A stretch of 64,000 nucleotides of DNA from Nitrospirota bacterium (GCA_015492645.1 WGER01000027.1:11396-75395); one strand, 5' to 3'. Shown: positions 1 to 26,900, counted from the first letter of the stretch. Notes: generated by a model not told the origin, from the sequence alone. Translations and numbers: made by a program.

Positions 1-801
1 TGTGCAACCCTTCACAACAACACCCTGGTCAGAAAGGGCCAGGTGGTGGCAGGCACAAGGGCCATACCTCTGGTGGTGAAGAAGGCAGTGGTGGAGGAGG
101 CGGTTCAGAGAGCCAGGAGTGAGGAGTCAGGAGTCAAGAGTCAGGAGTCAGGAGGGGCCCCCGAAAAATCGGAGATTTTTCGGGGCAGAGAAGTCGGAAG
201 TCAGAGGTCAGAGGGGGTGATAGAGGTAAGGCAGTTAAGAAGGCCAAGGGCTGGAGTGGTGATTACTGGCAACGAGGTCTATTATGGCCGGATCAAGGAT
301 GCCTTTGCCCCAATCATAAGGCAGAAGATTGAGGCATTCGGCGGTGAGATTGTGGGTCTTTATTTTGCCCCTGATGATGCAGGGTTTATTGAGGCCCGTC
401 TCAGGGAGTTGATTGAAGCAGGGGCAGACCTGCTGATCACCACAGGTGGTATGTCTGTTGACCCTGATGATGTCACAAGGTTTGCCATCAGGAACCTGGG
501 TGTAAGGGAGATGCACTATGGCTCTGCAGTGCTGCCCGGAGCAATGTTTTTGATTGCATACTTGAAGGAGTCAGAAGTCAGAAGGGGTCCCAGAAAAATC
601 AGAGATTTTTCTGGACTTATCCCGGTGCTCGGTATTCCTGCCTGCGGAATGTATCACAGGACCACGGTCTTTGACCTTGTCCTGCCAAGGATCCTTGCAG
701 GTGAGTACATAGACCGTGAGGCCCTTGCCGAGATGGGTCACGGTGGGTTATGCCTTAACTGTAGGGAATGTCGGTACCCTGTATGCCCCTTTGGGAAGTA
801 A
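1..801 (+). CDS. molybdopterin-binding (MogA/MoaB/MoeA-type fold) domain protein, 5' end outside window
   Basis: The frame is open from base 1 (CATLHNNTLVRKGQ...), so the ORF-track M at 43 is internal. ITTGGMSVDPDD motif of molybdopterin-binding domains. Cys-rich tail CLNCRECRYPVCPFGK. Carries two in-frame repeat insertions (115-216, 566-616). Confidence 0.6.
   Translation, partial: CATLHNNTLVRKGQVVAGTRAIPLVVKKAVVEEAVQRARSEESGVKSQESGGAPEKSEIFRGREVGSQRSEGVIEVRQLRRPRAGVVITGNEVYYGRIKDAFAPIIRQKIEAFGGEIVGLYFAPDDAGFIEARLRELIEAGADLLITTGGMSVDPDDVTRFAIRNLGVREMHYGSAVLPGAMFLIAYLKESEVRRGPRKIRDFSGLIPVLGIPACGMYHRTTVFDLVLPRILAGEYIDREALAEMGHGGLCLNCRECRYPVCPFGK
115..216 (+). repeat. in-frame composite repeat: six AGGAGTC-type heptamers, a 12-bp perfect hairpin, then four AGRRGTC heptamers
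   Basis: Heptamers aggagtg aggagtc aggagtc aagagtc aggagtc aggaggg at 115-156. Hairpin CCCCGAAAAATC-gga-GATTTTTCGGGG at 159-185. Heptamers agaagtc ggaagtc agaggtc agagggg at 189-216. Total 102 nt = 34 codons, translated as RSEESGVKSQESGGAPEKSEIFRGREVGSQRSEG. Confidence 0.85.
566..616 (+). repeat. second in-frame copy: three heptamers plus a hairpin
   Basis: Heptamers aggagtc agaagtc agaaggg at 566-586. Then CCAGAAAAATC-aga-GATTTTTCTGG at 590-614. Total 51 nt = 17 codons, translated as ESEVRRGPRKIRDFSG. Confidence 0.8.
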
Positions 802-20951: not shown

Positions 20952-20970
20952 AATAAAAGTGAGAGATTTT

Positions 20971-21375
20971 ATGCAAATAACGAAGGCACTTTCTGATGAA
21001 ACCAGGATAAGGATACTAAAACTCCTTGAACAGGGTGAACTCTGTGTATGTGAACTTATGGAGGTCCTTCAGATGGGCCAGTCCACAGTCTCAAAACACT
21101 TAGGGATACTTCATGCTGCCGGGCTCCTTGAGCGAAGAAAGAAGGGCACATGGTCTTATTACAGACTTGCCGAGGAGGCAGTGAACAAATATAACCTCCT
21201 TTTTATAGAAATAATAAAACAGATGCTAAATGATGAAAAACTGATAAAAGAAGATCTGAGGAGACTGAAAGGATTAAAGAGACAGAACAGAAAAGGAGGC
21301 ACAAATGCCTGTATTATTAACCCAACAACCAAAAACAAAAATACAAGGAGATTGGGCAAACTCCCTCTCCCTTGA
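20971..21375 (+). CDS. arsR: ArsR-family arsenite-responsive repressor
   Basis: ALSDETRIRILKLL, As(III)-site motif ELCVCEL, wHTH STVSKHLGIL. The C-terminal ~20 aa (CIINPTTKNKNTRRLGKLPLP) run into repeat copy A. Start is ATG 20971 or GTG 20959. Confidence 0.88.
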   Translation: MQITKALSDETRIRILKLLEQGELCVCELMEVLQMGQSTVSKHLGILHAAGLLERRKKGTWSYYRLAEEAVNKYNLLFIEIIKQMLNDEKLIKEDLRRLKGLKRQNRKGGTNACIINPTTKNKNTRRLGKLPLP

Positions 21376-21505
21376 GGGAGAGGGTAGGGGAGAGGGTGCC
21401 CCTCCCCGGAGGGAAGGGAATAGATAAGAGTGACAATCCCCCCTTGGGGAGGGGTGTTTTTGTCTCTGGCTTCTTGATGTATTTGCTGGCCGAAATACTA
21501 AGGTG
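21313..21505 (+). repeat. ~190-bp dispersed element, copy A (between arsR and arsC)
   Basis: Shares ordered blocks with 26893-27090: caaccaaaaacaaaaa; a CT-rich/GA-rich hairpin (CCCTCTCCC-ttga-GGGAGAGGG); gagggtg; CCCCTCC...GGAGGGG plus a T-run; tctctg..cttga.gtatttg. Confidence 0.75.
21399..21461 (+). terminator. terminator-like stem (CCCCTCCCC/GGGGAGGGG) plus T-run inside repeat copy A
   Basis: 9-bp GC stem 21399-21407 / 21446-21454 followed by tgttttt. The loop is large (~38 nt), so function is uncertain. Confidence 0.35.
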
Positions 21506-21535: not shown

Positions 21536-21958
21536 ATGCTTAAGGTGATGTTTCTCTGCACAGGTAACTCCTGCCGAAGCCAGATGGCAGAGGCTCTGGC
21601 AAGGCATTACGGTAAAGGTATAATTGAACCCTACAGTGCAGGCCTGATGCCCGTTGGGGTAAATCCCAATGCAGTAAAGGTAATGAAAGAGATAGGCATT
21701 GATATCTCAGGACAAACCTCAGACCCCATAGACGAGGACCTTCTCAGGCAGATGGATGTGATTGTAACCCTCTGTGGAAATGCCGAGGCATCCTGCCCCA
21801 GAACTCCACCTGAGATTAAACGCCTTCACTGGCCCATTGACGACCCCATTGGCACTGTAGGAACAGAGGAGGAAGTCCTTCGGGCCTTCCGCAGGGCGAG
21901 GGATGAGATAAAGGAGCGGATACTGAAATTTATTGAGGAGGTGGAAAGGGATGATTAG
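21536..21958 (+). CDS. arsC: arsenate reductase, LMW-PTPase / thioredoxin-coupled type
   Basis: [13 protein letters not shown]-loop plus the downstream Cys pair in [10 protein letters not shown]. Confidence 0.92.
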
Positions 21959-23003
21959 GAGGGCACTTGAGAAACTTCACAACTTCAGGTTGCTGCCTGT
22001 GTTTGTCCTTGTCAGTATGGCGGTTGGTGTAACCATTGGAAAGGTCTATGGGATTTCAAACTTTAAGATTACTCCACCAATTGATGCAATCAAGGCAATC
22101 TTTCGTGGCAGTTATGAATTCAGTTTGCCCAATACCCTTGCCCTTGGAGTGGTCCTGGGACTTTTTATGATGATATACCCCGCTATGGCAAACATAAAGT
22201 TTGAGGACCTGGGAAAGGCCGCCCGTTCTCCCAGACAACTGGCAATTGTAATGTTTTTCAACTATGCCGTGGCCCCATTTTATATGCTCCTGCTGGCGAA
22301 GATATTCCTGAGTGGAGAGGTTGACCTTTACACCGGCCTTGTCCTCTACGGCCTTGCACCCTGTATAGCAATGGTCATTGTATTTACTTATCTTGCAGGA
22401 GGGAATGGTCCCCTTGCAATCATACTTGTTGCCTTTAACTCAATCATGCAGATGATTCTCATACCTGTATATGCAAAACTTCTCCTTGGTGATATTCGGT
22501 TTGATGTATGGGTGGTGGGAGAGAGTGTCCTGCTTTATCTTGGCATTCCCCTTCTGGCAGGGATGCTTACAAGGTTTCTTGGGGTGAAAAGGTATGGTGA
22601 GCAGTGGTTTCATCGGTTGAAGTTTTATCTTGACACCATGTCAATTGTAGGGCTTCTTTTTACACTGGTGGTCATGTTTGCCCTTAAGGGAGACCTGATA
22701 CTTGAAAAGCCATTTTTTATTGTCCAGATGGCCATCCCCATGACCATATTCTTCTGGAGTATGTTTGTAGTGGTCTATCTTGTCTCATGGAAACTGGGCC
22801 TCAATTACGAGGACTCCGTTGCAGTAGCCTTTAATTCCACAGGCAGGGACTTTGAGATAGCCATAGCAATAGCCATCACCGCCTTTAACCCAACAGTGGC
22901 ACTGGCAACAGTAATAGGACCCTTGATTGAGGTCCCTGTGATGCTTGTGCTTGTATGGTTTGCAAAGTCAACTGAATATAAACTCTTTAAAGGGAGGGAT
23001 TGA
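21951..23003 (+). CDS. acr3: ACR3-family arsenite efflux permease
   Basis: Ten-TM pattern, conserved GLAPCIAMV and [16 protein letters not shown] segments. ATG 21951 follows SD gaggagg and overlaps the arsC stop. Confidence 0.9.
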
Positions 23004-23005
23004 GC

Positions 23006-23929
23006 ATGTATAAAAAGATACTCTATCCCATAAAGTTTGAAGAGTTTTCCCTTGATGTCCTGAGGTGTATCCTTGCCTTTAAGAATGCTGGCACTGAGGA
23101 GATAGTCTTTGTCCATGTAATAGATGTCTCTAAGATGCCGATGGACAGATATGAAGGATATTCCCCTGTTGATGTGGAGTCTCTAAAGGCGATTGCTAAG
23201 GAAAAGATGAAGGAGGCAGTAAGGATTGCAGAGGCCGGGGGACTCAAGACAAAGGAGATAATTCGCACTGGAGTCCCCTATCGGGAGATACTGAAGGTGG
23301 CAGAAGAAGAGCCGGGGGTGTCCTTGATTGTCTCTGGCAGGCAGAAAAAGAGTATTCTTAAAGAGATATTCATAGGCTCTAACACAGACAGGATTATCCG
23401 CTATGGTGATATACCTGTCTTCATCCCGAAATATCCAGGTGTTTTTGGTATCACCAGTAAGGAGGAATGTGAGAGAATCTGCCAGAATATCTTTAAAAGG
23501 GTCCTCTATCCCACAGACTGGTCTGACTGTGCAAGGGTGACCTTGCAATACATTAAGGCACTGAAAGGGGCAGGGGTTGAGGAGGTTGTGGTTGCCCATG
23601 TGATGGATGAAAAGGCAATGAGACTTCAACCACCTGACAGGTTCAGGGAATTTGAAAAAGAGGACATGGAAAGACTTGAGGAGGTAAAGAGAGAACTTGA
23701 AGAGACAGGCTATAAGACAAAGACAAGGCTTGAAGTGGGAAGGCCAGGTGCTGACCTGATAAGGATTGCCCGTGAGGAGGATGTGACCCTGATTGTGATG
23801 GGCTCCCATGGCAAGGGCTATGTGGAAGGTATCCTCTGGGGCTCTGTCTCAAGGAATGTGGTTGAATACAGCGACAGGCCTGTGTTGCTTGTAAAGAGCG
23901 AAAAATGCCTGAAGGAGGTTAGACCATGA
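23006..23929 (+). CDS. tandem universal stress protein (2x UspA domain)
   Basis: Two USP repeats, each ending in a G-x2-G-x9-GS-type motif (IVSGRQKKSILKEIFIGSNTDR; VMGSHGKGYVEGILWGSVSRNV). SD agggaggg before ATG 23006. Confidence 0.85.
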   Translation: MYKKILYPIKFEEFSLDVLRCILAFKNAGTEEIVFVHVIDVSKMPMDRYEGYSPVDVESLKAIAKEKMKEAVRIAEAGGLKTKEIIRTGVPYREILKVAEEEPGVSLIVSGRQKKSILKEIFIGSNTDRIIRYGDIPVFIPKYPGVFGITSKEECERICQNIFKRVLYPTDWSDCARVTLQYIKALKGAGVEEVVVAHVMDEKAMRLQPPDRFREFEKEDMERLEEVKRELEETGYKTKTRLEVGRPGADLIRIAREEDVTLIVMGSHGKGYVEGILWGSVSRNVVEYSDRPVLLVKSEKCLKEVRP

Positions 23930-24258
23930 AGGTAGAGATCTATGACCCACCCATGTGCTGTTCATCAGGCCTCTGCGGGCCGAATATTGACCCTGTGCTT
24001 GTGAGGGTAAACGAGGCTATATTGAACCTAAAAAAGCAGGGTGTGGAGGTCAGGAGGTTTAACCTTGCCCAGCAGCCAAAGGCATTCATGGAAAACCCTA
24101 CAGTAAAATCCCTTCTTGCAAAGGAGGGTAAGAAGATTCTGCCCATCACCATAGTAAATGGTGAGGTCTTCAGGACCTCTGGGTATCCATCCTATGAGGA
24201 ACTCTGCAAGGCTCTTGGGATTGAGCCTTTAAAAAGTATTCCTATAATTAGGGTTTAA
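23926..24258 (+). CDS. arsD: arsenical resistance operon metallochaperone ArsD
   Basis: MKVEIYDPPMCCSSGLCGP, the Cys12-Cys13-Cys18 signature. Confidence 0.92.
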   Translation: MKVEIYDPPMCCSSGLCGPNIDPVLVRVNEAILNLKKQGVEVRRFNLAQQPKAFMENPTVKSLLAKEGKKILPITIVNGEVFRTSGYPSYEELCKALGIEPLKSIPIIRV

Positions 24259-24340
24259 TCGGTGAAGCGGCAACTCGGTGAAGGGGTAAAGTCGGTGAAG
24301 AGGTGAAGGGGTGAAGGGGTAAAGAGGTGAAGGGGTGAAG
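24259..24340 (+). repeat. tandem 8-nt repeat array (about ten units, consensus NNGGTGAA), left arm of the cassette
   Basis: tcggtgaa gcggcaac tcggtgaa ggggtaaa (g) tcggtgaa gaggtgaa ggggtgaa ggggtaaa gaggtgaa ggggtgaa. Supplies the SD and GTG start of the next ORF. Confidence 0.9.
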
Positions 24341-24709
24341 AAAGGATATCAAAGTTTTAAGGAATTGAAGGTATGGCAGGAAGCCAGGACACTTGCAGTG
24401 AGGATATATAAGATTACTTCTTCAGGTGCATTATCAAGAGACTTTGGCTTTAGAGACCAGATTCGACGTGCAGCAATATCTATTCCTTCTAATATTGCCG
24501 AAGGATATGAAAGAGGAACTGATAAAGAGTTTATTCGTTATATCATGATAGCAAAAGGCTCCATTGCAGAATTAAGGACGCAATTGGAAATAGCAAAGGA
24601 AATAGATTATCTGGATTCACAAATATACGATGAACTGGAAAATCTTTGTAACAAAATAGGTGCAATGCTAACGAAATTGATCAGAGCAAGGAGTGCCAAT
24701 AATGTCTGA
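24335..24709 (+). CDS. four-helix-bundle protein (23S rRNA intervening-sequence protein / Avd-like family)
   Basis: 124 aa. N-terminus FKELKVWQEARTLAVRIYKIT and later NIAEGYERGTDKEFIRYIMIAKGSIAELRTQLEIA match my recollection of the PF05635-type family. GTG start at 24335 inside the repeat. Confidence 0.75.
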   Translation: MKKGYQSFKELKVWQEARTLAVRIYKITSSGALSRDFGFRDQIRRAAISIPSNIAEGYERGTDKEFIRYIMIAKGSIAELRTQLEIAKEIDYLDSQIYDELENLCNKIGAMLTKLIRARSANNV

Positions 24710-26618
24710 TGTAAATACAAAATTTACCGATTCACCCATTAACCGATCAACCACTTCACCATTATATATCTTCTTCTCAGGCAAAGGCGGAGTGGGAAAG
24801 ACCACTATGGCCTGTGCAACGGCCATCTACCACGGTATTCAAGGCAAAAGGACACTTATTGTCTCAACCGACCCCGCCTCTAATCTATCGGATGTATTTG
24901 AACAGCAGATTGGCCATAAGGTGGTAAAAATAAATGGTGTGGAAAACCTCTTTGCCATGGAGATTGACCCTGATGAGGCCACCCGTGAATACAAGGAACG
25001 GATTATTGCCCCTTTCAGGGAAGTGATGCCCGAGGATGTGATAGCCTCCATTGATGAACAGTTAAGCGGCCCCTGCACCACTGAGATGGCAGCCTTTGAC
25101 CGATTTATTGACTTCATGGAGACCGATGATTACGACATTATAGTATTTGACACTGCTCCCACAGGGCACACCATCAGGCTTCTGGAACTGCCTGTTGACT
25201 GGTCACGGCACATTGAGGAGGCATCAAAGGGCACGGGGCAGACCTGTCTTGGCCCTGTGGAGACCATACAGGGCTCTAAGGAACGGTATGACCGTGCAAC
25301 AGCACTGCTTAAGGATCCTCAAAAGACGAGGTTTATATTCGTCATGCGTCCTGATGAGTTGTCTTTATACGAGACACTCAGGGCATCAAAGGAACTTGAA
25401 AGCATAGGGATAAAAAAAGGCGAGATTATCATAAACGGCATCCTGCCGGCGGAGGTCTGTGAGGTAGAGTTTTTCAGGAAGAAATACCACGCCCAGCAGA
25501 GGGTCATAAAAGAGGCAGAAGAGATCTTTGCTGATATTCCCAGGAGATATATGTTACTAAGGGATTCTGAAGTAAAAGGGATTGATAACCTTAAGTCACT
25601 GGCAGTGGAGTTGTTTGGCGGTGAAGCGGTGAAGGAGTTAATCGGTGAAGCGGAAAAAGAGTCCACCACTTCACCACTTCACCGAGTCACCTCTTCACCG
25701 TCCTCCCGCTTCACCTATTCACCTCTTCACCGAATGACCGCTTCACCGCTTTCGCTTTTTTTGCCAGTTAACACTGGAACAAGGGCTGTTTTCTTCACTG
25801 GAAAGGGCGGGGTTGGAAAGACCACCATATCCTGCATCACTTCATTATTTACTGCAAAGAAAGGTCATAAGAGCCTTCTTGTCACCACAGACCCTGCCGC
25901 ACATATCGGTGAGGTGCTGGATGTTAAGATCGGCACTGAACCAGTAGAGGTGACCGAAAACCTTTTTGCAGTGATGGTTGACCAGGAAGAGGCGTTTAAG
26001 GAGTACAAGGAGCGGATACTCAATGAGGCAAGGGGCAAATACTCAGAGGAGATGCTTCGGGCAATGGAGGAGGAACTGAACTCCCCATGCACTGAGGAAA
26101 TGGCAGCCTTTGACAGGTTTATTCAGTTTATAGAGTCACGGGATTACGATGTAATAGTATTTGATACCGCACCAACAGGGCATACACTGAGGCTTCTGAG
26201 CCTTCCCTTTGATTATGCAAGGCAGGTGGAGATGATGGTCTCAGGAGCCGGGGCTGAAAAGGCAAAGGAAGATACGGAAAACCGTTTCAAAGAGATAATC
26301 AACCTCCTTAAAGACACTAAAAGGACGACCTTCTGCCTTGTCTTATATCCCGAATCCACACCCATTGAGGAGTCCTATCGTGCCATGCTTGACCTTAAAG
26401 ATGCAGGAATTGAGACGCAACTGGTAGTGGCAAACATGATTATTCCAGAGGAGGTCTGCGTTAATGACTTCTTCCGTAACAGAAGGGCCATGCAGTTAAA
26501 ATACCTTGAGGAGATAAAAAAGAGATTTGGACTTCCAGTTCTTGAATTTCCTCTGATGGAGGATGAGATAAGGGGAATGGAAATGCTAGAAAGGGCCCTC
26601 TCATATCTCGTTGAATGA
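24702..26618 (+). CDS. arsA: arsenite-transporting ATPase ArsA (A1-linker-A2)
   Basis: Two P-loops GKGGVGKTT, two DTAPTGHT signatures, and As(III)-ligand Cys contexts (SGPCTTEMAAFD, GQTCLGP, NSPCTEEMAAFD). The N-terminal extension and the linker are repeat-derived. Confidence 0.93.
   Translation: MSDVNTKFTDSPINRSTTSPLYIFFSGKGGVGKTTMACATAIYHGIQGKRTLIVSTDPASNLSDVFEQQIGHKVVKINGVENLFAMEIDPDEATREYKERIIAPFREVMPEDVIASIDEQLSGPCTTEMAAFDRFIDFMETDDYDIIVFDTAPTGHTIRLLELPVDWSRHIEEASKGTGQTCLGPVETIQGSKERYDRATALLKDPQKTRFIFVMRPDELSLYETLRASKELESIGIKKGEIIINGILPAEVCEVEFFRKKYHAQQRVIKEAEEIFADIPRRYMLLRDSEVKGIDNLKSLAVELFGGEAVKELIGEAEKESTTSPLHRVTSSPSSRFTYSPLHRMTASPLSLFLPVNTGTRAVFFTGKGGVGKTTISCITSLFTAKKGHKSLLVTTDPAAHIGEVLDVKIGTEPVEVTENLFAVMVDQEEAFKEYKERILNEARGKYSEEMLRAMEEELNSPCTEEMAAFDRFIQFIESRDYDVIVFDTAPTGHTLRLLSLPFDYARQVEMMVSGAGAEKAKEDTENRFKEIINLLKDTKRTTFCLVLYPESTPIEESYRAMLDLKDAGIETQLVVANMIIPEEVCVNDFFRNRRAMQLKYLEEIKKRFGLPVLEFPLMEDEIRGMEMLERALSYLVE
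24723..24761 (+). repeat. right arm of the cassette (inverted copy of 24260-24300), translated as the ArsA N-terminal extension
   Basis: The reverse complement tggtgaagtggttgatcggttaatgggtgaatcggtaaa aligns along its length with cggtgaagcggcaactcggtgaaggggtaaagtcggtgaag. Confidence 0.75.
25617..25754 (+). repeat. gene-less inverted octamer array translated as the ArsA A1-A2 linker
   Basis: Left arm, 4-5 GGTGAAG-type units (25617-25653). Loop aaaaagagtcc. Right arm, eleven ACCNCTTC units (25665-25754). Total 138 nt = 46 codons, with an 8-aa periodic peptide TTSPLHRV TSSPSSRF TYSPLHRM TASPLSLF. Confidence 0.88.
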
Positions 26619-26624
26619 CCTGTC

Positions 26625-26900
26625 ATGAATGTAGAACACCTTATCAAGAACCTATCTGAATCTGCCAGTGGAGACCCTGAACTCTTTAAACTTCTTGAAA
26701 AGGCCCGGGAGTATGCCCGGGTTTATCACTTTGCAAAGGCAAGGCAGAAGGGCTGTAACGGGATGGGGGAGGTGGCAACACTGAAGGATGAGTTTAATTC
26801 TGTAATAGAAGATCTCCTTTCTTATGCCTCTGAAAAGGGATATATCCCTCCAGATACATCCTTTGATATTGATGAAGTGGCAAAGGTGTTGATTTATTAG
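26625..26900 (+). CDS. hypothetical protein (last gene of the ars cluster)
   Basis: 91-aa ORF 6 nt after the arsA stop. No recognisable motif. Confidence 0.4.
   Translation: MNVEHLIKNLSESASGDPELFKLLEKAREYARVYHFAKARQKGCNGMGEVATLKDEFNSVIEDLLSYASEKGYIPPDTSFDIDEVAKVLIY

Follow-up and report, generated by a model that had tools for sequence, protein, structure and literature searches.

The arsenic-resistance (ars) operon in a 64,000-nucleotide (nt) stretch of a Nitrospirota bacterium (GCA_015492645.1, WGER01000027.1:11396-75395), called the window here, carries a small gene between arsD and arsA that is enclosed by inverted arrays of tandem octamers. The operon runs in the order arsR (20959), arsC of the low-molecular-weight protein tyrosine phosphatase type (21536), acr3 (21933), a tandem-Usp gene (23000), arsD and arsA, which ends at 26618. 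The small gene encodes a protein of the family PF05635/TIGR02436, named '23S rRNA IVS protein' after the intervening sequences (IVSs) of 23S rRNA. We describe gene and arms as a cassette, the gene as its cargo, and give the features in window coordinates, with SD for Shine-Dalgarno sequence and ORF for open reading frame:

23926..24258, + strand: arsD, the upstream host gene (PF06953, E=1.1e-38); its stop codon abuts the left arm.
24259..24340, + strand: left arm, ten tandem octamers of consensus nnGGTGAA, purine-rich on the sense strand, with 7 exact GGTGAA copies clustered (Tandem Repeats Finder (TRF), sequence).
24335..24709, + strand: cargo gene, a 124-aa four-helix-bundle (4HB) protein, PF05635/TIGR02436 (profile matches).
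24688..24704, + strand: restart module in the 3' end of the cargo ORF, SD AAGGAG (24688-24693) plus the arsA ATG (24702-24704) (sequence).
24702..26618, + strand: arsA, the downstream host gene, with its start codon and first ~21 codons from the cassette (PF02374, E=1e-159).
24723..24762, + strand: right arm, five degenerate octamers (TTCACCnn) that imperfectly complement the left arm (repeat search, duplex energy).
25618..25751, + strand: cargo-less octamer hairpin in the ArsA A1-A2 linker (TRF, sequence, fold).

The left arm serves as the start region of the cargo gene. Its units read, in order, TCGGTGAA GCGGCAAC TCGGTGAA GGGGTAAA G-TCGGTGAA GAGGTGAA GGGGTGAA GGGGTAAA GAGGTGAA GGGGTGAA; TRF reports 24277-24340 as period 8 (7.9 copies, 80% matches) and 24259-24323 as a period-16 row. 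The cargo SD, GAGGTGA (24324-24330), which matches the complement of the 16S 3' tail, lies within the last units 4 nt ahead of the GTG start at 24335, itself part of the last octamer. The ORF that follows matches PF05635 with 136.9 bits (E=3.7e-40, cutoff 33.8) over profile positions 1-105 of 106, and TIGR02436 with 130 bits (cutoff 24). Its closest solved relative is PDB 2GSC (E=8.5e-18), and 2RLD also matches (E=9e-5); each entry holds five chains, and homology to the two supports the predicted four-helix-bundle fold.

The right arm has become part of ArsA. Its units are TTTACCGA TTCACCCA TTAACCGA TCAACCAC TTCACCAT, and just ahead of them the arsA ATG overlaps the 4HB stop TGA (24707-24709) within ATGTCTGA. 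ATG 24702 is the sole usable arsA start, as no in-frame ATG, GTG or TTG lies between it and the P-loop, and the right arm is therefore translated (...KFTDSPINRSTTSPLY...; MSDVNTKFTDSPINRSTTSPLYIFFSGKGG), reading as ArsA residues ~8-20 (FTDSPINRSTTSP). A preliminary description of the stretch had read the junction this way, from an arsD stop at 24258 (now confirmed by the ORF list and the PF06953 match) through about ten 8-nt units, the last of which supply SD and GTG, and a four-helix-bundle ORF to a downstream arm that is the imperfect reverse complement of the left array and extends ArsA at its N terminus. Each of these points holds, with ten units found and a complementarity of 71–84% depending on register.

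The cassette is a single, local feature of the window. Clusters of GGTGAA/TTCACC occur at only two sites in the 64 kb, the cassette arms and the hairpin inside arsA, and the cassette itself is present in one copy. It stands outside 23S rRNA, between arsD and arsA, and an Rfam scan of the whole window returned no match. No terminator was found between arsD and arsA, and promoter-like matches there stay at the level of shuffled sequence (one at 24221-24248, at the end of arsD), so the cassette most likely rides on ars transcription. An identical locus is present on a 6.9-kb contig of GCA_027053865.1, the only such contig among the matches listed.

The same junction in relatives shows how the cassette arrived. 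We placed relatives whose ArsA is 72-92% identical on their contigs and read their junctions. At locus L086 arsD and arsA overlap in ATGA and ArsA starts with MKYLFFSGKGG, with neither arms nor 4HB gene. The order arsD-4HB-arsA occurs at the same site in L088, a Thermodesulfovibrionales metagenome-assembled genome, and in L089, Dissulfurispira thermophila (AP022873.1, ars locus at about 1,947,400-1,950,100). Their arms are more regular than the window's, with GGTGAAnn repeated 7-8 times on the left (fewer in L089) and TTCACCnn 4 times on the right, and both end the 4HB ORF with an AGGAGG-N-ATG restart; the arsD of L088 runs into the left array and ends on the array's TGA. Since the virgin site lacks the gene and both arms, gene and arms entered as one unit. 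The earlier proposal of an inserted cassette is supported by the relatives: junction alignment defines an empty site in L086, the same cassette recurs in L088 and L089, and in neither does the gene stand there without arms. That this is a cassette, that it was inserted as a single unit and that it captured the arsA start are conclusions in which we have high confidence.

Other relatives hold remnants or different occupants. In L085 and L090/L091 the left array is gone together with most of the gene, and what remains is the last ~50 nt of the 4HB ORF, with the arsA SD and ATG, plus the right arm. The L085 and L090 breakpoints coincide with a GGTG microhomology shared by the array and an internal AGGTGCAATG, and the two states look like independent imprecise deletions that were probably constrained to keep the arsA start. 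At the same junction L082, L083 and L084 have a gene of 78 aa and a PIN_3 gene, which together form a VapBC-like toxin-antitoxin pair (L082 2307-3004, L083 2151-3001). Octamer arms are missing there, and the PIN gene ends in a stop that overlaps the ATG of arsA. The arsD|arsA junction is a hotspot for small selfish insertions, be they 4HB cassette or PIN pair. An alignment of ArsA sequences finds the N-terminal extension only where the cassette or a remnant is present and not at empty or toxin-antitoxin-occupied junctions, where ArsA begins MKY/MTKY-IFFSGKGG. L083 also has an inverted-repeat insert of ~150 nt directly 3' of arsD.

The cargo is an old and functional gene. Across the window, L088 and L089 its ratio of nonsynonymous to synonymous substitution (dN/dS) is 0.07-0.10, with dS above 1.6 or saturated, and that of arsA is 0.06-0.09; low dN/dS together with saturated dS means that the 4HB protein is functional and has long been kept. 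Neutral sequence would be randomised over such distances, and in L088 and L089 the arms have stayed regular and built of the same unit, which calls for selection or continuing homogenisation. At the ars locus, then, the cassette is by all appearances old and vertically inherited, and lost by imprecise deletion rather than by excision. The operon around it has a mixed history. Identity matrices separate two clades of operon sequences: the Acr3 of the window is 87-88% identical to the Dissulfurispira-type clade and ~40% to the clade that includes its ArsD and ArsA (84-94% and 82-92%), and the Usp gene is found only in operons with a Dissulfurispira-type left half (window 21933-23929, compared with L082/L085/L086 and L089/L090). 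Between the window and L082 the ArsA A1 halves are 99% identical and the junction contents differ. Because Acr3 and ArsA of the window fall in different clades, the operon is a recombination mosaic in which junction states were exchanged or replaced.

Inverted arms are a feature of the PF05635 family at large. We took two samples of PF05635 loci from among the matches listed, 80 from species-representative genomes of many phyla and 80 from metagenomes, whose contigs come without taxonomy; the samples are not random. For each gene the 150 nt upstream were aligned to the reverse complement of the 150 nt downstream and scored as complementary at z>4 against shuffles, with mechanically called ORFs on the same contigs as controls. 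Complementary flanks were found for 56/86 and 47/76 of the sampled PF05635 genes versus 5/93 neighbouring ORFs, and some of those five themselves adjoin such arrays. The arms are nearly always tandem repeats, with period 7 dominant and period 8 a minority, and the unit varies between cassettes (for example TAGTCAC, TAGGTTC, AGTTCAC, AGGGACT, GGAGACN and AACCGGA). Of the 130 genes that are intact, 101 are accompanied by an array on one side or both; in 53 it is both, and the two periods are equal in 50 of these. Identity between the left unit and the reverse-complemented right unit is 0.86, compared with 0.53 between different genes, which amounts to covariation of the arms at family level.

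The arms also have a polarity. In 44/56 and 35/44 cassettes of the two samples purines prevail on the sense strand of the 5' arm, G:C pairs outnumber C:G pairs ~3:1, and the upstream neighbour is co-directional in 124/142 cases. This orientation relative to the ORF argues that the direction of transcription or translation may matter. When adjacent inverted array pairs are counted, 41 have a 4HB gene between them, 6 form hairpins with nothing inside and 3 enclose something else; none of the 160 sampled family loci lies inside a 23S gene, as judged by conserved 23S motifs. Three specific roles were considered and rejected. A left arm whose units, with TGA or TAG at period 7/8, supply stops in all frames while the right arm remains open is true for the GGTGAA family but is no general rule (three-frame stops in 18/57 left versus 12/57 right arms), and left arrays as SD arrays with right arrays as anti-SD mimics are specific to the GGTGAA subfamily, since other units have no SD similarity (TAGTCAC, AGTTCAC, TACGTTG). 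Membership in a defence system was dropped after a PADLOC search without a match.

A cassette's gene and its arms go together. Among proteins that share at least 57% identity with that of the window, 8/8 strongly periodic cases have period-8 flanks, mostly GGTGAA/TTCACC, and the closest relatives have as neighbours PIN, Wzz-like, ArsP|thioredoxin, IleRS|heptosyltransferase, DsrE and NusG|methyltransferase genes. Protein similarity tracks unit similarity (Mantel test, 0/300 permutations); period and protein similarity show no significant relation over the whole sample (62/300 permutations). Where two cassettes share a contig, their proteins are 34-66% identical and their units differ, one tandem duplicate in L032 being the exception, so the unit is a property of the cassette and not of the genome. 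L136 and L170 are 88% identical over 425 nt that are exactly the arrays plus the ORF, and unrelated outside; homology is likewise confined to arms and ORF in L131/L136, L133/L170, L142/L169 and L094/L101. A discrete unit with inverted ends, found in different contexts and with a known empty site, is what characterises an element bounded by terminal inverted repeats (TIRs). No transposase or recombinase was found in or next to the cassettes, nor were near-identical copies in different contexts, and we know of no transposase for bacterial PF05635 cassettes.

Some members of the sample add detail to the boundaries. An octamer-armed 4HB cassette lies between an ArsP-type permease gene and a thioredoxin-like gene, upstream of arsR-arsC-acr3, in L093 (66% identity) and L172-L181. 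Three GGAGACN cassettes (L170 2880-2910, L131 1063-1090, L133 700-730) share a motif just outside the left array (CTT..CTTATTG.GGTTATTGG.AGA), which is not present in L136 and may belong to the 5' boundary or represent a favoured target. In L097 (2950-3000) and L100 (2850-3000) the C terminus of isoleucyl-tRNA synthetase runs into the 4HB left array (...CVETVERLDGWTV); it is another arm absorbed into a host protein.

The arms are predicted to pair in RNA. In the window they are complementary at 71% over 38 nt, 82% over 22 nt or 84% over 19 nt, depending on the register. Their RNA duplex has an energy of -44.7 kcal/mol (z=-2.9 versus shuffles), and the whole cassette region folds at z=-2.1, with 1/100 shuffles equally good and the arms paired in the minimum-free-energy structure. 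Across the window and the orthologous L088 and L089 the arm duplexes come to -44.7, -51.6 and -44.8 kcal/mol with z from -2.9 to -4.9, the signal being stronger in the orthologous cassettes (L088 z -4.9, L089 z -4.5). Taken alone, the pairing signal in the window is only moderate; its weight comes from the relatives and the family comparison. With that weight, the picture first drawn of an ORF enclosed by stem-forming arms that pair better than shuffled controls survives.

Known 23S IVSs share this anatomy. In Coxiella burnetii and Leptospira, as in the ars cassette, a PF05635 ORF lies within stem-forming terminal inverted repeats. The Coxiella IVS has a 28-bp terminal stem that is cut by RNase III in vitro, and an SD followed by 3-4 tandem GACAGAT heptamers upstream of the S23p ATG, in a copy number that varies by strain; the 5' cut falls at the first heptamer repeat (PMC4990558). 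As in the ars cassette, tandem short repeats thus occupy the SD region immediately ahead of the ORF. Heptamers and stem together mean that the rRNA IVS shares its anatomy with the operon cassettes, and 'IVS-like', the term used in the preliminary description for an element in an operon context, is apt for the whole element and not for the protein alone. The ars cassette differs from 23S IVSs in sitting at a stop/start overlap of a protein-coding operon instead of in 23S helix 25 or 45, and in its unit of 8 nt. One of its arms is translated in the downstream protein, whose start codon lies inside the element. Excision would consequently differ in outcome: at the ars cassette it would damage a host gene, whereas in 23S it leaves a functional fragmented rRNA. 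The ars ORF is under purifying selection, unlike the Coxiella ORF, which is reported as decaying.

Arrays without cargo have been reported elsewhere. Geobacter metallireducens has 24 + 21 + 8 opposite-strand site pairs of tandem octa- or heptanucleotides between operon genes, classes 1-3 of 'global regulator binding sites', read as regulator or integration host factor (IHF) sites, with IS110/IS481 beside them (PMC2700814). Xanthomonas has 70-75 convergent GGGAATC array pairs that are transcribed and have no assigned function (Rehm et al., PMC4692102). Like the cassette arms, these are short opposite-strand arrays of 7-8-nt units with variable spacing, in intra-operon spacers such as nifD|nifK and proB|proA. 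The reports differ from our observations in mentioning neither a gene between the arrays nor a link to PF05635, and they propose protein-binding or G-quadruplex roles.

The hairpin in the ArsA linker of the window is of this cargo-less type. It consists of 4 GGTGAA units (25618-25653), a short loop and ~11 TTCACC units (25664-25751), and it folds at -56.1 kcal/mol (z=-4.5), with a duplex energy of -53.5 kcal/mol (z=-5.7). It is translated in frame throughout (GGEAVKELIGEAEKESTTSPLHRVTSSPSSRFTYSPLHRMTASPLSL), and the one left-hand unit in which a TGA could have fallen in frame is AGTTAATC. With 24 nt to every three octamers, the encoded peptide has a period of 8 aa, FTxSPxHx. In an ArsA alignment this periodic linker is present in several relatives, including Dissulfurispira, and missing from others, which means that arrays are gained, lost and tolerated in coding sequence.

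Other elements resemble the cassette in part. Neisseria Correia elements and enterobacterial repetitive intergenic consensus (ERIC) sequences, also called intergenic repeat units (IRU), are hairpin-forming elements inserted in operons; they fold in the mRNA and can be cut by RNase III, with an effect on the stability of flanking cistrons. They have TIRs of unique sequence, no ORF and many near-identical copies per genome, in contrast to ars-type cassettes with their tandem micro-repeat arms, a unit of its own for each cassette and a conserved protein cargo. Eukaryotic Foldback (FB) transposons have long TIRs built of short tandem repeats; this is an analogy only, because organisms, scale and proteins are unrelated to those of the bacterial cassettes. 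A full-text literature search, with TIGRFAM and NCBIfam comments outside its scope, did not turn up any paper tying PF05635 genes outside rRNA to inverted arms made of tandem repeats, in agreement with the initial remark that the arrangement was not known as described. A large screen for CRISPR association has '23S rRNA IVP' among the abbreviations explained in the legend of a figure on CRISPR-associated protein families (PMC10910872). Speculatively, short-period arrays beside PF05635 genes could be one source of that CRISPR association.

Comparison of the junctions shows the history of the ars cassette, and for its action we propose a mechanism. The cassette entered an arsD/arsA ATGA overlap in an ancestor within the Thermodesulfovibrionia and was passed on vertically under purifying selection. 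It was absorbed into operon translation, with the left array ending arsD and carrying the cargo SD and GTG, the last ~20 nt of the cargo ORF holding the SD and ATG that arsA now uses, and the right array serving as an ArsA extension. In mRNA the arrays are predicted to pair over ~30-40 nt, as 6-bp helices separated by 2x2 loops with an energy of ~-45 kcal/mol, in a stem that would surround both the cargo ORF and the start of arsA. A ribosome that completes the cargo and restarts on arsA would hold the right arm single-stranded, and so couple arsA output to cargo translation. By analogy with the Coxiella IVS, a stem that did form would be a plausible RNase III substrate; cleavage would free the cargo RNA, capped by the stem, and deprive arsA of its start codon. 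The right arm lies downstream of the arsA ATG, so a cut would decapitate arsA instead of separating it from arsD, and processing is therefore not efficient if ArsA is made. This geometry contradicts the clean split of the ars transcript between arsD and arsA that the preliminary description had envisaged. The arms probably also delimit the unit that moves at the DNA level. An RNA stem that acts in vivo, through RNase III cutting or translational gating, is the part of the proposal that we advance tentatively and hold to be somewhat short of an even chance.

In general terms, the class consists of a PF05635 gene between inverted tandem arrays of 7-8 nt units, with the purine-rich array 5' and its complement 3', and 23S rRNA IVSs that carry a PF05635 ORF are its rRNA-resident members. 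A widespread class of insertable PF05635 cassettes with the mechanism just proposed is our best overall explanation, and we give it a probability of roughly 0.55. Several observations weigh against it. The right arm in the window is degenerate, with 2 exact TTCACC in 5 units, and the fold of the region reaches just z=-2.1. Arm positions that are not Watson-Crick show no excess of G.U over A.C (58 versus 68 and 41 versus 56 in the two family samples), which offers no apparent sequence-level support for selection on a sense RNA stem; complementarity may be kept by copying or homogenisation at the DNA level instead. Efficient cutting by RNase III would inactivate arsA, which is clearly maintained. 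No target-site duplication longer than ~2-4 nt is recognisable at the ars junction, where the ancestral TGAA resembles the repeat unit and blurs the boundary. Of the sampled family members, 35-40% have no detectable arms. The earlier idea of a possibly mobile cassette has evidence on both sides: homology of arms plus ORF in unrelated contexts and the empty site speak for it, and the age and vertical descent at the ars locus speak against it, as do the single copy in 64 kb and the identical protein P0027, which occurs on 16 contigs always in one ArsP|4HB|thioredoxin context and gives no sign of current mobility.

The same facts can be read as the work of a foldback or miniature inverted-repeat transposable element (MITE) acting at the DNA level, in which the arrays are TIRs or hairpin or cruciform sites for a recombinase or transposase in trans, or for a repeat-binding 4HB protein, and the RNA stem is a by-product. 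Homology that ends where the arrays end, between cassettes in unrelated contexts, fits it well, as do arms without G.U bias, array copy numbers and deletions that follow a pattern of slippage or microhomology (in L085 and L090 the breakpoints are at GGTG), protein similarity that tracks unit similarity, and same-contig cassettes that differ in unit. So do the cargo-less inverted arrays, in the arsA linker, at other loci, and in the 53 Geobacter metallireducens pairs with adjoining IS110/IS481 and the 70-75 Xanthomonas pairs. However, the cassettes have no transposase or recombinase within or beside them, no target-site duplication was seen at the ars site, near-identical copies in different contexts were not found, and arm sequences that differ within one genome are awkward for a single enzyme in trans. 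Nor would a purely DNA-level function lead one to expect that the arms have a strong polarity with respect to the ORF and that cassette and upstream gene point the same way. We regard this alternative as unlikely, though as the strongest competitor. A domesticated ars component, with 4HB protein and arms in a host role in arsenic resistance such as ArsD/ArsA stoichiometry or mRNA stability, draws on purifying selection that has kept the gene at one junction in three lineages whose dS is saturated, on the present dependence of arsA translation on cassette sequence, and on the related cassette at the ArsP|thioredoxin-like junction of an arsenic operon (L093, L172-L181). Close relatives nevertheless do without the cassette (L086 is empty, L085/L090 are deletions and L082/L083 hold the PIN pair), the closest family members stand next to IleRS, DsrE, NusG, PIN and Wzz-type genes, among others, and the gene has no match to a defence (PADLOC) or arsenic-specific family, all of which makes domestication distinctly improbable.

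Two further explanations fall far lower. The PF05635 fold is homologous to that of Avd, the accessory protein of diversity-generating retroelements (DGRs) (PMC10053308), and the cargo could be an Avd gene or its remnant. The shared superfamily shows in scores of 21.3 bits to PF22296 (bAvd) and 25.2 bits to NF033474, but both are far under the cutoffs of 40 and 80 bits. Within ~5 kb on either side the genes encode ArsR, ArsC, Acr3, Usp, ArsD, ArsA, rhodanese and two-component proteins, with no reverse transcriptase and no template/variable repeat (TR/VR) pair, and the only repeats near the cargo gene are the octamer arrays; a DGR origin is very improbable indeed. Finally, two unrelated simple-sequence arrays might flank an ordinary small gene by coincidence. 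Further short tandem repeats exist in the genome, among them the heptamers at 105-212 and 569-620, and pairing in the window alone reaches z of about -2 to -3. Coincidence is nonetheless already refuted by the comparative data, as GGTGAA/TTCACC clusters are confined to two arsA sites in 64 kb, orthologous cassettes have the same arms, the empty site has none, and family enrichment stands at 60-65% versus 5%; the chance left to it is negligible.

A broader extension of the cassette reading is also one we hold to be unlikely, at much the same level as the DNA-level element. PF05635 proteins would be the element-encoded factor of phylum-spanning prokaryotic foldback cassettes, recognising and perhaps generating or maintaining their own arms. 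IVSs would be the rRNA-resident members, and the cargo-less arrays of Xanthomonas and Geobacter and the ArsA linker would be derivatives.

The window contains other repeats and small ORFs. An ORF at 43-801 (+ strand) has heptamer arrays (AGGAGTC/AGAAGTC) around a small hairpin at 105-212 and at 569-620, both in frame. The hairpins are CCCCGAAAAATCGGAGATTTTTCGGGG and, in the second copy, CCCAGAAAAATCAGAGATTTTTCTGG, translated as ...SEESGVKSQESGGAPEKSEIFRGREVGSQRSEG... and ...KESEVRRGPRKIRDFSG...; the element resembles cyanobacterial small hairpin repeats nested in heptamer arrays. The arsR-arsC spacer (21355-21460) contains a G/C-rich palindromic element, CCCTCTCCCTTGAGGGAGAGGG, then GGGGAGAGGG...CCCCTCCCC, and CCCCCCTTGGGGAGGGG with a T run, and the listed arsR ORF (20959-21375) ends inside its start. 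The palindrome looks like another intergenic repeat family or a putative terminator-like hairpin. Directly after arsA lies a 91-aa ORF (26625-26900) with no Pfam match, and ORFs of similar size occupy the same position in L001 and L089.

We read the cassette as an IVS-type element in operons, of a widespread and little-described kind, with tandem-repeat arms as a family signature. If the reading is right, it joins 23S IVS ORFs, Avd homologues without DGRs and the over-abundant inverted arrays of Xanthomonas and Geobacter, unexplained for decades. It also illustrates absorption by a host: the translational coupling of an operon was rebuilt from cassette sequence, and arrays were turned into an ArsA N-terminal extension and an interdomain linker. 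For annotation it means that gene callers can misplace starts at cassette junctions and that repeat finders may mis-score the arrays. The questions it raises can be tested, namely whether the 4HB protein binds its own arms, whether RNase III cuts them in mRNAs and how the cassettes move, and Dissulfurispira thermophila, with a complete genome and the same arrangement, may serve as the experimental system.

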